A stretch of 64,000 nt of DNA from an uncultured Terriglobales bacterium (GTDB lineage: Bacteria > Acidobacteriota > Terriglobia > Terriglobales > Acidobacteriaceae). Below, piece by piece: positions 8,225 to 12,514 of the stretch. The stretch's first letter is position 1; each line of letters begins with the position of its first letter. The notes under the pieces were generated by a model that was not told where the DNA came from, made no database searches, and was given only the letters and a program-made list of their open reading frames with translations. The DNA lies in contig CAZLJE010000013.1 in assembly GCA_964559835.1 (NCBI GenBank), positions 54,209-118,208 of the forward strand, given 5' to 3'. The translations under genes and the position numbers were made by a program.

Positions 8225-10285
8225 CTAGGAGTAGTCGGCGCGAGCGATGTTGAGCCGCCGCATCTTGTTCTGGAGGGTTGTGCGCTTGAGGCCGAGATTT
8301 TCGGCCGCTCCGCCTGCCCCAGCAATCCTGCCGGAAGCAGTTTTTAAAGCATCGATGATGGCCTGCCGCTCGGCGTCGTGGAAGGTGGACCCGGAACTGT
8401 TCCGAGGCGCTCGCATCGCGTTCTTCAGTTGTGGAATCGGCACGTTCAACTCGCTGCCCTGCGTCAGGATCACGGCGCGTTCGATGAAGTTCTCCAACTC
8501 GCGCACGTTGCCCGGCCAGGACGCTGTCGCCAGAGCTTCCATTGCGTGTTTGGGAATCGTCTTGATGTTCTTTTGCATCCGGCGAGCGAGTCGCGACACA
8601 AAATAATGCACGAGGAGCGGAATGTCTCCGGGACGGTCGCGCAGCGGTGGGATCTCGATCGGGAAAACGTTCAGGCGGTAGAAGAGGTCTTCGCGAAATT
8701 GATTGTTGCGAATCATCGCGGCGATATCGCGATGAGTCGCTGCGATCATGCGAACGCTGACCTGGATGGTCCTCGTGCTGCCCAGCCGCTCGAACTCCTG
8801 TTCCTGGACCGCCCGCAACAACTTCGGCTGCAACTCCATACTGATGTCGCCGATCTCATCCATGAATAATGTGCCGCGGTCGGCAAGCTCGAACCGACCC
8901 TTTTTCTGCATCAATGCCCCGGTAAACGCGCCCTTCTCATGCCCGAACAGTTCGCTTTCGAGAAGACCAGACGGAATCGCGGCACAGTTGAGCTTGACGA
9001 AAGTCCGCTCCTTCCGTGGGCTGCCCATGTGGATTGCGCGCGCAAACAACTCCTTTCCGGTGCCCGTCTCGCCATGCAGCAGCACCGTGGAATCGGTCGG
9101 GGCCACGATTGCGACTTGCTTCATCACATGCTGGATGGCGGCGCTGTTACCGACAATATCTTCGAAGTTGAATTCGGAGAGGATCTCCGATTCCAGGTAC
9201 AAGCGCTCTTCCTTAAAGCGATCTCTGGCCTCCGCGACACGCCCATAGGCAATCGCATTTTCGACCGCCAACGCAATTTGGGTGCTGATCTGCGACAGGA
9301 GATCCAAGTCCTCTTGACCGAAACTGTCCGGCCGGCGGCCGCCCATGGTTAGAACGCCGATAGGACCGGTCGCAGTTACCAACGGAACCATTGCCAACGA
9401 CACGATGGATTCAGCTTTGAGGTTCTCAACGACTGACGGCGGAAGCTTCTCGAATTGTTCGGTCGACCACAGCTCAGGAGTTCGGGCGCGCAAATTGGCG
9501 TGATCGGCATCTGTAAGTTCGGACCGCGTGTCCGGTTTCAAGAAACCTTTGCCGCTGGGGAAATCCAGCAGGACGCATTCCACGTGGTTCGATTGTTTAT
9601 TGATAAGCCAGAATCCGGCGAAGTCGTTTTCGAAGTAATTGCGAAGCGATGCCGATGCAGACCGGAACAAATCGTTGATGTCCAGCTTGGAAACAATATA
9701 GTTGTTGATTTCCAGCAGAAGTCTCAGCCGGTCGCGCTCTTTAGCCACTTGTTGCTGGTAAAACTCCGCGGTGTGTCTGGCCACGGCGCACTCGAGCGCG
9801 ACGGCAACGTGCGATGCTACTGAACGTAGCAACTCGACGTCTTCGCGGACAAACTCCTGCCCCCGGTCTTTCGTCACGACGAGGATCCCGAATCGTTTCT
9901 GGGCGGTTGAGACCGGAAACACGTATGTGCTTCGGCCGACAGATTCGGCCGCGAATGGAGCCAACTCAGGATGTTTCAACATCTCCTGCGATACGTCCGG
10001 GAGAAAGACTGGTTCTTGGTCCTGAAGCACTCTCGCCGCCGCGCCAATGCGTGAGATCCTGGTTCCAGTGGCGATCGCGGGCGCGTCCGCTTCTCGATCG
10101 AACTCCAAAACGTGCAAGCTTTCTCCATCGTCGCTCAGGACGTAGAGGAAAGCTCCGTGGATCCTACAAGTGCTGGACAGAAAACCGCGCAGGCTGTGCA
10201 AGACAGCTTTTACCGTGGGTTGATCGGCCACGGCGCTGGACGCATCCAGCAATGTTCGATATCGGTCTTCGGCGGTCGTCATCAA
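8225..10285 (-). CDS. Sigma-54-dependent transcriptional activator, GAF-GAF-AAA+-HTH (FhlA-like)
   Basis: Two GAF-like N-terminal domains. GETGTGKE Walker [16 protein letters not shown], and a Fis-type HTH at the C-terminus. ATG at 10282 is the likely start. Confidence 0.9.
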   Translation of the reverse strand: MMTTAEDRYRTLLDASSAVADQPTVKAVLHSLRGFLSSTCRIHGAFLYVLSDDGESLHVLEFDREADAPAIATGTRISRIGAAARVLQDQEPVFLPDVSQEMLKHPELAPFAAESVGRSTYVFPVSTAQKRFGILVVTKDRGQEFVREDVELLRSVASHVAVALECAVARHTAEFYQQQVAKERDRLRLLLEINNYIVSKLDINDLFRSASASLRNYFENDFAGFWLINKQSNHVECVLLDFPSGKGFLKPDTRSELTDADHANLRARTPELWSTEQFEKLPPSVVENLKAESIVSLAMVPLVTATGPIGVLTMGGRRPDSFGQEDLDLLSQISTQIALAVENAIAYGRVAEARDRFKEERLYLESEILSEFNFEDIVGNSAAIQHVMKQVAIVAPTDSTVLLHGETGTGKELFARAIHMGSPRKERTFVKLNCAAIPSGLLESELFGHEKGAFTGALMQKKGRFELADRGTLFMDEIGDISMELQPKLLRAVQEQEFERLGSTRTIQVSVRMIAATHRDIAAMIRNNQFREDLFYRLNVFPIEIPPLRDRPGDIPLLVHYFVSRLARRMQKNIKTIPKHAMEALATASWPGNVRELENFIERAVILTQGSELNVPIPQLKNAMRAPRNSSGSTFHDAERQAIIDALKTASGRIAGAGGAAENLGLKRTTLQNKMRRLNIARADYS

Positions 10286-10413
10286 GGGGTAACCGGAACC
10301 CGTAGCAAAGGATCAAAAACTGGGAGCACATGCAGAGACCATAGTCAGCAGCCGTGCAATACCCTGGTTCGCGGGTTTGGCGTCCGTACAGTAATCAATT
10401 CCACGCAGCAATA
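10195..10413. repeat. Left arm of a ~215-bp inverted duplication (5' end and upstream region of the GAF-sigma54 regulator gene plus the last codons of the sigma-like gene)
   Basis: Reverse complement aligns by eye with 11133-11345 at roughly 85-90% identity, with small indels. Confidence 0.85.
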
Positions 10414-11048
10414 CCCGCATCCTGTTCCAAGTGAGCCTCGCAGTCGATCACCTCGAGCGATTCCAATGCCGCGCAGTATGCTCCTTCCACAGCAAGCGGG
10501 CTGATGCGGAGCCACCGGGCGGCTTCGACCCAACTGAATTTCTCGATACCACAAATGACCAGAACAAAGCGGCACAGGGTGTCGAGCCTGGACCGGATCA
10601 ACTCGGACTCCGCGACGATGAACTCAAGCGACTCAGGAGGCAGTAGCTCGTGAGCGGTATGGAAACAATCGCGGGCCTTGTAAATGTGCGAGAGCTCGGC
10701 GATCCGCGTCCGCTCAATCTCGAAGGAGCAGTCGATGACAGCAAACACCGGCGATACCGGCATAAAGGCCGGTGTTGGTTCGGACGACGCTTGCGTGAAT
10801 GCGCACGCATTAACGAGACACGCTTTCGCCATTTCGTGGTTTCCGGTAAGAAAAATCGCCAGCCACCTGAGCTCCTCCTGGTGTTCGGCGAATGTTCCGT
10901 GAGTTTCCTCAGCTGCTTTGGGAAGGTCCGAGTAGATGCCGCATTTTCCGGCGGTGATCATAACTGCCTCTACCCTGGAGTAGCAACTTCCGTTCCACAT
11001 CACGACTCCCGGCAAACTGTTGAGAAGGTTCGGATAATTACAAGCCAT
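10395..11048 (-). CDS. Hypothetical protein with sigma-70 region-4-like HTH (divergent ECF-like)
   Basis: LDTLCRFVLVICGIEKFSWVEAARWLRISPLAVEGAYCAALESL resembles sigma region 4.2. LRWLAIFLTGNHEMAKACL is a weak region-2-like stretch. Start is uncertain. Confidence 0.4.
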   Translation of the reverse strand: MACNYPNLLNSLPGVVMWNGSCYSRVEAVMITAGKCGIYSDLPKAAEETHGTFAEHQEELRWLAIFLTGNHEMAKACLVNACAFTQASSEPTPAFMPVSPVFAVIDCSFEIERTRIAELSHIYKARDCFHTAHELLPPESLEFIVAESELIRSRLDTLCRFVLVICGIEKFSWVEAARWLRISPLAVEGAYCAALESLEVIDCEAHLEQDAGIAAWN

Positions 11049-11132
11049 TCAAGTTGGTTACTGTGCCGATGCCCGTATGTGGGCACTCTGACATTTTACG
11101 CCGTAACACTTGGGAAACATGCCCGATCGCCA

Positions 11133-11345
11133 AATTGCAGCGTGGAATTGATTGCGCGCTCTACTGTACGGACGCCAGGCCGGTCCGCGATCGATGGTAT
11201 TGCACGGCTGGTGATAATGGTCACTGCATGTGCTGCCAGTTTTTGATACTTTGCTGAGCGTTCCGTTTACCCCTTGATGGTGACGCCGAAGACCGATATC
11301 GAACATTGCTGGATGCGTCCAGCGCCATGGCCGATCCACCACGGT
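11133..11345. repeat. Right arm of the inverted duplication
   Basis: Contains a copy of GCGTGGAATTGA (tail of the sigma-like gene), the intergenic region and the first ~70 nt of the regulator gene. Confidence 0.85.
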
Positions 11346-11400
11346 AAAAGCTGTCTTGCACAGCCGTCTGTTGGTGGGAATACTTACCGATCCACGGGGC
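11277..11400 (+). pseudogene. Decayed 5' remnant of a GAF-sigma54 regulator gene
   Basis: ATGGTGACGCCGAAGACCGATATCGAACATTGCTGGATGCG matches ATGACGACCGCCGAAGACCGATATCGAACATTGCTGGATGCG of the 8225-10285 gene. At least two 1-nt indels and a premature TAA. Confidence 0.75.
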
Positions 11401-11428
11401 GAACCGGGATGAAGTTGAGGAGGTAAAT

Positions 11429-12514
11429 ATGGCGCACGCAACGTTTGGATTTACGAATCCCGAAGGCCTTCCGGGAGCGGGTTTTGCTGTGCCGTGCGGG
11501 GCTGAGGGCCAGCAACTGTGCCCGGGCCCAGTAATGACCTCTCAGTCGCGCTTTCAAGGCATCATCGGCAAGAGCCCGGCCTTTCAGAAGGTGCTGGAAG
11601 AAGTCGAGATCGTTGCGCCGACAGATGCGACCGTCCTCCTGCATGGCGAGACGGGCACAGGGAAGGAGTTGATTGCACGAGCCATTCACAACCTGAGTCC
11701 AAGGCGCGACCGCACCTTTGTGCGTGTGAATTGCGCCGCTATTCCCTCGGGACTGTTGGAGAGTGAACTCTTCGGGCATGAAAAGGGAGCGTTCACCGGC
11801 GCCTTGATGCAAAAGAAAGGCAGGTTCGAGGTAGCGGATCGGGGTTCGCTCTTCCTGGACGAGATTGGCGACATCAGCCTGGAGCTACAGCCGAAATTGT
11901 TGCGGGCGCTGCAGGAGCGAGAGTTCGAACGCCTCGGAAGCGCCAAGACGATCCGCGTAGACGTACGCATTATTGCGGCGACCCACCGCGACCTTGAGAC
12001 GATGATCGAGGAGAAGACGTTTCGCGAGGATCTTTTCTATCGATTCAAAGTTTTTCCCATCGAGATCCCGCCGCTGCGCGAACGTCGCGAAGATATTCCG
12101 CTTCTCGTGCATTACTTCGCCTCGGTTGTGGCTCGCCGGATGCATAAGAACATTACGAACATACCGAAGCACGCGATGGAGGCCTTCGTGAATGCTTCGT
12201 GGCCGGGCAACGTGCGCGAACTCGAGAACTTCATCGAACGCGCGGTCATTCTCAGCCAAGGAAGTGAGTTGTGTGTCCCGATGCCGGAGCTGACGAATCT
12301 CGTCCGATCACCTCACACCACCTCCGTGTCCACATTTCACGATGCCGAGCGGCAGGCCATCGTCGGCGCTTTGAGAGCTGCCTCTGGACGCATTGCGGGC
12401 AGGGGAGGAGCCGCCGAACGGCTCGGACTGAAGCGTACGACTTTGCAAAACAAGATTCGCCGGCTTGGAATCACAAAAACAAATTGCCTGCAGTGGATGA
12501 GACAAAGCGCGTAG
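11429..12514 (+). CDS. Sigma-54-dependent activator lacking any sensory domain (AAA+-HTH only), paralogue of 8225-10285
   Basis: Strong RBS GAGGAGG before ATG 11429. About 80% identity by eye to the AAA+/HTH part of the neighbour ([33 protein letters not shown]). The first ~40 aa are unrelated. Confidence 0.9.

Follow-up and report, generated by a model that had tools for sequence, protein, structure and literature searches.

An inverted repeat between two sigma-54 activator genes of an uncultured Terriglobales bacterium: probable scar of a local rearrangement

When a gene for a sigma-factor-like protein is bracketed by an inverted repeat and stands between two genes for sigma-54 activators, can it be flipped from one activator to the other, or is the repeat just the trace of a past rearrangement? 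This question is raised by a locus in the metagenome-assembled genome of an uncultured Terriglobales bacterium (GenBank assembly GCA_964559835.1), within a stretch of 64,000 nucleotides of contig CAZLJE010000013.1 (positions 54,209 to 118,208), which is called here the window. The left activator, with two GAF domains, is encoded on the minus strand, and the right one, shorter and sensor-less, on the plus strand, so that the two genes stand head to head, as an earlier note on this DNA had described. With a probability of roughly 0.7, we consider the repeat to be the decaying scar of one lineage-specific, local rearrangement. The observation itself is real and the correction that it brings to the history of the short activator is useful, and the phenomenon, an inverted segmental duplication scar, is an ordinary one.

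The inverted duplication had first been claimed by eye, and it was borne out by a computed repeat search and a gapped alignment, where the earlier note had asked for a dot-plot or BLASTN. Two arms of about 260 nt each were found around the sigma-like gene (Table 1), with five collinear inverted blocks in their core, 10192-10412 against 11134-11365. The gapped alignment of this core has 234 columns, with 199 matches, 20 mismatches and 15 gap columns in 4 indels, giving an identity of 90.9% without gaps and 85% with them, and the longest runs identical between the arms are 43 nt and 27 nt. Relative to the left arm, the right arm has gained 9 nt at 11153-11161 (previously read as 8-9 nt) and 4 nt at about 11180, and has lost two single nucleotides; the one diverged patch that had been noticed lies at about 11175-11198 and includes the 4-nt insertion. 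A scrambled patch (10164-10191 versus 11366-11388) borders the core, and beyond it 12 nt of homology with one mismatch, GATCCACGG(A/G)GC, are found at 10152-10163 and 11389-11400. The right end of the repeat was consequently moved from the 11345 given previously to 11365, or to 11400 with the resumed homology. The content assigned to the segment, namely the last codons of the sigma-like gene, the spacer upstream of the activator gene and the start of that gene, agreed with the alignment.

The repeat is present in two copies across the whole genome (5.2 Mb, 88 contigs). In a draft of so many contigs, repeats are the places where assemblers err, and a chimeric join or a fold-back might be suspected. 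Yet the substitutions and indels that separate the two copies are not expected of a fold-back, which is therefore not a serious option. Coherent genes are found on both flanks, the G+C content is even (0.57 at the repeat region versus 0.59 for the window) and the contig is 137 kb long, all of which makes an assembly artefact very improbable.

As to which arm is the original, the gene order in relatives points to the left one. In the metagenome loci numbered L006-L010, a large gene comes 93-153 nt after the sigma-like gene and lies on its strand. This large gene is complete only in L006; the contigs of L007-L010 end within it, where tested it matches the same activator, and L011 stops just inside it. 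The named Terriglobia genomes L023, L025, L038 and L041 show the order sigma-like gene then GAF-GAF activator gene too. The left activator, whose best NCBIfam match is an FhlA-type model below its cut-off, is the orthologue of the L006 activator of 702 amino acids (aa), with 82.7% aa identity. Because this gene order recurs in related Terriglobia, the left arm most probably represents the native, ancestral junction. The ancestral unit would then have consisted of an enhancer palindrome, a sigma-54 promoter, the sigma-like gene, a spacer of about 100-150 nt and the GAF-GAF activator gene, forming an autoregulated operon; upstream of the sigma-like gene, related loci carry a STAS-like open reading frame (ORF) of 96-119 aa. 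An inverted repeat was found, at E<=1e-5, in 0 of 23 related genome loci. An inversion through staggered breaks, which leaves duplications at the ends of the inverted segment, was rejected, since the left junction is ancestral in the relatives and the 720-bp segment between the arms is hence not the inverted piece.

What the right activator is, and where it comes from, is the second element of the argument. The earlier note had implied that it is the remnant of a duplicated gene after deletion, i.e. that a whole-gene inverted duplication was followed by the loss of both GAF domains, leaving a 361-aa activator as the trimmed duplicate of its 685-aa neighbour. In favour of this history, no other paralogue in the genome is as close to the right gene as the left gene is (75% aa identity, with at most 63% for the others), and a stub of the left gene's start lies directly upstream of the right gene. 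Nevertheless, the database search retrieved more than 100 proteins of 353-364 aa with 70-76% identity to the right activator over 97-98% of its length, and its N-terminal ~45 residues are homologous throughout this short family (e.g. MGHAGLALTDGRGLAGISFP..., MAHAAIAFTDLGDFAGAGFP...), whereas the left gene has nothing that corresponds to them. A maximum-likelihood tree was built from the AAA+/HTH region of 45 sequences. In it, P0031/P0032 are the sister group of the right gene (99/93), within the clade of short activators (98/92), and the left gene groups with its L006 counterpart (100/98) in the GAF clade (96/92). Moreover, the right protein is no closer to the left protein than to the L006 activator (75% in both cases), even though the latter two share the 82.7% mentioned above. 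Between the bodies of the two genes the synonymous divergence (dS) is about 2.0 and the proportion of synonymous differences (pS) 0.70, so that synonymous sites are saturated, as against 0.15 substitutions per site, or 13% divergence, in the spacer shared by the arms; dS amounts to 1.15 for the left gene versus L006 and to 1.06 for the right gene versus L012. A trimmed duplicate is hardly credible in the light of these results, and the two activators are old paralogues of separate descent, the right gene not being derived from the left. Duplication with deletion of the sensor is the wrong story for this locus: the short activator comes from a Terriglobia family that is old and widespread, and all it took from its neighbour is a copy of the gene start; a young repeat beside old paralogues can mimic a recent gene duplication.

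The domains of the right activator fit this placement. It matches PF00158 (E=9e-74), AAA_lid_14 and HTH_8, with no Pfam domain N-terminal of residue 45, and its GAFTGA motif, Walker A and Walker B are intact on sequence inspection. Against the PspF equivalog model it scored 287.7 bits, where the cut-off is 443.55, and it is thus no PspF orthologue; the protein belongs with the sensor-less bacterial enhancer-binding proteins of the PspF or HrpR/S kind in its architecture only.

In contrast to the gene bodies, the copied arm is young. Its spacer differs from that of the left arm by 15 substitutions over 112 aligned sites (87% alike), and beyond a short hairpin core no alignment of this spacer with its orthologues in L006, L007 and L008 is possible. 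Since the spacers of the arms are so much alike while those of different species are unalignable, the copy was made long after the split from the L006-L008 relatives, and far later than the split of the gene bodies. It has nonetheless decayed. The start of the regulator gene is kept in the right arm at 11277 (ATGGTGACGCCGAAGACC) and is frameshifted and terminated, as had been noticed before: a 1-nt deletion lies just after the ATG, a second one creates a TAA at 11345-11347 in the native frame, and the scrambled patch follows, so that an out-of-frame ORF of 50 codons is what remains. Over 11389-11431, the native frame of the stub (IHGA) is in phase with the ATG of the short activator and is free of stops after the patch. 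Originally, the stub may have been fused in frame to the N-terminus of the short activator, and frameshifts may have broken this fusion afterwards, yet such a phase is expected by chance in about 1 case in 5, and we have given it no weight.

The surroundings of the short activator place the break on its upstream side. Elsewhere, its gene is usually preceded by a gene for a membrane protein of 128-131 aa (L012-L014, L020, L022 and L047), and in L012-L014 two tiny conserved ORFs (53 aa and 58-60 aa) precede it as well. Neither the membrane-protein gene nor the two tiny ORFs were found in this genome by tblastn, and for the STAS-like ORF a single weak tblastn match (28% identity) was obtained, on contig C10. 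Upstream of the short activator, similarity to L012-L014 starts only at the Shine-Dalgarno (SD) sequence. As the DUF4136 gene to the right of the short activator is syntenic with L013, this gene seems to sit in its old neighbourhood. The right arm is thereby enclosed between the control region of the sigma-like gene, ancestral to at least ~11090, and the ribosome-binding site of the short activator, from ~11410.

We therefore favour a single event to which the scar would be due. A stretch of about 260 nt, spanning the junction of the sigma-like gene with the GAF-GAF activator gene, would have been copied in inverted orientation, the copy landing some 50 nt beyond the enhancer, where relatives carry the STAS gene, and abutting the ribosome-binding site of a sensor-less activator gene from an old and separate family. 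Inverted segmental duplications and templated inverted insertions are known to arise by break repair or by replication template switching. Here, either a single templated inverted insertion by one of these processes, or a larger inverted duplication trimmed by deletions, could have produced the arrangement, and the data do not separate the two routes. Templated inverted insertions and segmental duplications resemble the present case in that a short nearby piece is inverted at a novel junction, the native target sequence is lost and the decay is neutral; they differ from it in that the mechanism is here deduced only. After landing, the copy would have accumulated its two frameshifts, its stop and its scrambled patch, and its present role would be at most that of a 5′ leader of the short activator, with no programmed function. 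The direction of copying, from left to right, and the mechanism rest on parsimony, because no outgroup carries the pre-rearrangement state of this exact lineage.

Several points weigh against this reading. First, that missing outgroup: the two genomes of the same genus (72-73% complete) lack the region, with no match to 9700-11700 and no sigma-like gene, and exact 35-40-mers of the locus identified no other strain in the genome or metagenome contigs searched. Second, the terminal branch of the right gene is long (0.20, versus 0.05-0.09 for its sisters), possibly through relaxed or altered constraint after the loss of its usual neighbours; its placement leans partly on the N-terminal homology and not just on the tree. 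Third, fewer differences have built up in what used to be the coding stub than in the spacer, with 4 substitutions in 89 sites versus the 15 in 112 (Fisher p=0.05). A tract of gene conversion after the copying could account for this, or else a constraint acting on the stub, and such activity would go beyond that of a dead scar. Some half of the contrast would be there in any case, given the protein-coding constraint on the left stub. Finally, the short activator is intact and has been under purifying selection over its whole branch (ratio of nonsynonymous to synonymous divergence, dN/dS, 0.13 versus L012 and L013), and a consensus scan of its strand over 11049-11428 gave no promoter of the sigma-70 or the sigma-54 type. 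With an ORF that is intact and under purifying selection, it must be transcribed from somewhere; it is presumably expressed, and the arm may carry an unrecognised promoter.

Perhaps, then, the copied arm was kept since it puts the sensor-less activator under the same local control as the GAF-GAF activator. An operator common to both (GTGAC-N4-GTCAC), an attenuator or the coupling of a leader ORF to the start codon might exert this control. Such a capture of a functional promoter or leader concerns present function and is compatible with an origin as a scar. The hairpin core GTGAC-N4-GTCAC recurs in the spacers of L008 (N4) and L006 (N9) and is better preserved in the right arm, where three substitutions improve the stem; with its run of U, the right-arm hairpin looks like an intrinsic terminator or attenuator, and the spacer hairpin could be an attenuator that sets the ratio of sigma-like protein to activator, or an operator. 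The low divergence of the stub, the position of the 50-codon ORF, which ends right on the SD sequence, the intact state of the short activator gene and the motif GATAAT, gained at 11213-11218 in the right copy where the left copy has GACTAT, would fit as well. However, each of these is a small-sample observation, and the frameshifts, the stop and the scrambled patch show that the copied coding part is not under selection. The predicted folding of the two spacers is no better than that of shuffled controls (z +1.3 and -1.0), no Rfam family matched in the arm region (E<=1), and the lack of a predicted promoter on the strand of the short activator counts here too. A leader function is thus possible but doubtful. 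A sigma-54 promoter read by eye in the spacer was discarded, the left copy having the GG-N10-GC spacing but six consensus mismatches and the right copy the wrong spacing.

An inverted repeated segment that is far more alike than the rest of two genes recalls tufA/tufB of Salmonella, in which whole genes that stem from one duplication are kept nearly identical by gene conversion. In the present locus, on the other hand, the two bodies go back to distinct, ancient lineages, the arms stem from a more recent copying and are diverging from each other (9%), and the evidence for a conversion tract is at most marginal (p=0.05). It is not a concerted pair of the tufA/tufB type, because the bodies do not come from the same duplication.

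The earlier note had also raised the possibility of a recombinational switch, and its geometry is sound. RecA-dependent crossing-over between the arms would invert 10413-11133, with the enhancer, the sigma-54 promoter and the sigma-like gene, which would be co-transcribed with the signal-gated GAF-GAF activator in the present orientation and with the sensor-less activator in the flipped one. When the flip is simulated with a crossover inside the 43-nt identical run, the sigma-like ORF stays unchanged, because both arms encode IAAWN-stop, and its sigma-54 promoter and gene come to lie 265 nt ahead of the short activator's ATG. In the present orientation the short activator has no recognised promoter of its own. 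Both identical runs, 43 and 27 nt, reach the length needed by RecA for efficient pairing. If true, the locus would switch between gated and constitutive feedback without a recombinase, which would be unusual, and would give a heritable locked-ON state of the regulon. Yet the arms are 9% diverged and carry four indels, where frequent exchange would homogenise them, as in tufA/tufB; the 17-bp hairpin of the right arm with its U5 run would hinder read-through into the short activator; and the arrangement is unique among the 23 related loci sampled. As for recombinases, no serine recombinase (PF00239) is encoded in the whole genome, and the five tyrosine recombinase genes (PF00589) lie on contigs C1, C62, C9 and C8, none on the present contig, C13. 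The circumstantial evidence is hence against a working switch, for which no support was found, and it is quite unlikely that even a rare inversion of the RecA type swaps the cassette between feedback by a ligand-gated GAF-GAF activator and feedback by one that lacks a sensor and is constitutively active.

Invertons such as fim, hin and the hsdS shufflons share with this locus inverted repeats that bracket a promoter and a gene, with a flip that would re-wire downstream expression and leave the gene intact. Known invertons mostly use short, near-identical repeats, unlike the arms described here, which are ~260 nt long and 91% identical with indels, on a contig that encodes no recombinase. In programmed inversions the site-specific recombinase is usually encoded nearby, although some cases lack it (PMC9881135). 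For this reason, the absence of a recombinase weakens a claim to be an inverton without excluding it. Of the features tested, flanking repeats are present at the locus, and a nearby recombinase and near-identical repeats are not; by these it is not an inverton.

Table 1. Positions of the features at the locus and of stretches noted at short-activator genes of relatives (window coordinates unless a locus is named)
Feature	Position	Strand	Remarks
Left arm, source copy	10152-10412	-	Last 18 nt of sigma-like gene (IAAWN*), 112-nt spacer 10283-10394 and first ~44 codons of GAF-GAF activator
Right arm, inverted decayed copy	11134-11400	+	9-nt and 4-nt insertions, two 1-nt deletions, scrambled patch 11366-11388
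Inverted block 1	10192-10218 / 11339-11365		27 nt, 100%
Inverted block 2	10218-10274 / 11284-11340		57 nt, 96%
Inverted block 3	10275-10374 / 11185-11284		100 nt, 85%
Inverted block 4	10378-10393 / 11162-11177		16 nt, 100%
Inverted block 5	10393-10412 / 11134-11153		20 nt, 95%
GAF-GAF sigma-54 activator gene	8225-10282	-	685 aa from ATG 10282; two GAF, AAA+ sigma-54 interaction domain, lid, HTH_8 (Pfam)
Spacer hairpin and U5 run, weaker version	10312-10363	-	Hairpin at 10322-10363; degenerate GTGAC-N4-GTCAC core; predicted fold
Extracytoplasmic function (ECF)-sigma-like gene	10395-10961	-	188 aa; homologues (186-190 aa) share the start MIT...
Predicted sigma-54 promoter	10982-10997	-	TGGAAC-N5-TTGCT (TGGAACGGAAGTTGCT); ~20 nt upstream of sigma-like start codon, SD-like GAGG between
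Palindromic enhancer-like site	11070-11085		TGCCCACATACGGGCA (TGCCC-N6-GGGCA); 73-88 nt upstream of sigma-54 promoter
Spacer hairpin, stronger version	11196-11247	+	17 pairs at 11196-11237, then AGTTTTTGAT; predicted fold; not called by simple terminator scan
Decayed activator gene start	11274-11426	+	Out-of-frame 50-codon ORF (TTG 11274 / ATG 11277); TAA ends two bases before ATG of short activator
Sensor-less sigma-54 activator gene	11429-12514	+	361 aa; ~44-aa family-specific N-terminal extension, AAA+ with GAFTGA, lid, HTH_8 (Pfam); own SD GGAGG 11419-11423
Stretches noted at short-activator genes, relatives	L012 2749-3102; L013 5617-5969; L014 5625-5972

The sigma-like gene, claimed at 10395-11048, is present with a start that is most likely the ATG at 10961: the 217-aa ORF from 11048 is an over-extension that overruns the gene's own promoter, and the homologues begin at the methionine of 10961. 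Its product gave no Pfam match at E<=10 and no NCBIfam match at E<=1; a precomputed match to PF08281 (Sigma70_r4_2) exists for 2 of 27 homologues, and the nearest homologue in the protein database is 63% identical. An AlphaFold2 model built from 23 sequences (pLDDT 78.7, pTM 0.75) was compared with the PDB by Foldseek, with SigW, SigL, RpoE, CnrH and the sigma-like domain of PhyR as top matches, at a probability of ~1.0 but with E only ~1e-3 and TM 0.45-0.5. Judging from this model, the label sigma-like seems fair for the 188-aa protein, membership of the ECF family not being established. The members of its family (186-190 aa) show several near-invariant cysteines and a conserved C-terminal AWN. 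The family could also be a partner-switching module, or a decoy similar to PhyR, instead of a true sigma factor.

The predicted promoter of this gene is one of only two matches to the sigma-54 consensus with 1 mismatch in the window, and it is positionally conserved, as TGGCATGGCAGTTGCT in L006, TGGAATGGCAGTTGCT in L007 and TGGCATGAATGTTGCT in L008. At the same place in these three loci, ~75 nt upstream of the sigma-54 promoter, lies the palindrome TGCCCA(C/T)ATA(T/C)GGGC(A/G). In the relatives both elements sit between the STAS-like ORF and the sigma-like gene, and they occupy the equivalent places in the window. An enhancer pattern with N6 between TGCCCA half-sites gave no matches and was dropped; the correct pattern has N4 between the hexamers, equal to TGCCC-N6-GGGCA. 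Across the genome, seven sites are within one mismatch of the palindrome pattern, and the CATA(C/T) centre of the relatives is found only at 11070-11085. This single site suggests that the regulon is much reduced in this genome. The relatives carry the palindrome three to four times per locus (L006 2096-2111, 3956-3971 and 6875-6890; L007 2653, 4511, 5026 and 6877), in intergenic gaps ahead of OMP_b-brl and Usp genes and beside an outer-membrane efflux (OEP) gene, and have a second sigma-54 promoter before a pair of genes for a 79-aa protein and Usp.

Taken together, the layout would imply a cascade from sigma-54 to an ECF-like sigma factor, with the GAF-GAF activator encoded in the same operon. 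The HTH segments of the two activators are nearly identical, and those of the related families are alike, so that both activators may be able to use, and to act on, the palindrome at 11070-11085. In Pseudomonas syringae, HrpR/HrpS act at a sigma-54 promoter that drives hrpL, a gene for an ECF sigma factor. Small proteins accompany such activators, HrpV/HrpG in the case of HrpS and PspA in that of PspF. The locus resembles the HrpR/HrpS system, and PspF of E. coli, in having a sensor-less AAA+/HTH activator and a predicted sigma-54 promoter ahead of an ECF-type sigma gene, and, in the loci of its relatives, small proteins encoded beside the sensor-less activator. By analogy, the tiny ORFs could encode partners that act in trans on the short activator, in the way that HrpS has HrpV/HrpG and PspF has PspA. 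It differs from these systems in that no sequence relationship is found beyond the shared domains, the sigma-like protein has no Pfam sigma match, a GAF-GAF activator is co-encoded in the operon, and the regulatory links are read from the sequence only. For regulation in soil Acidobacteriota, a putative sigma-54 promoter and enhancer that would drive a sigma-like gene along with its own GAF-GAF activator are of modest interest, and so is a second, sensor-less activator with an almost identical DNA-reading helix, whose usual small companion genes have been lost in this genome.

Beyond this locus, a 210/245-aa ORF divergent from the short activator in L020/L021 was considered as a sigma-like gene and set aside, since it has no similarity to the sigma-like protein and reads as a low-complexity, spurious frame overlapping the membrane-protein gene on the opposite strand. 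Genes for the short activator, the GAF-GAF activator, the sigma-like protein, STAS and Usp co-occur in varied orders and orientations (L020 5001-8195; L012 3132-5979; L022 5001-8857). This regulatory neighbourhood is prone to rearrangement: the activators of L020 stand tail-to-tail, L012 and L013 have a convergent sigma-like paralogue, and in L022 a transposase lies between the genes.

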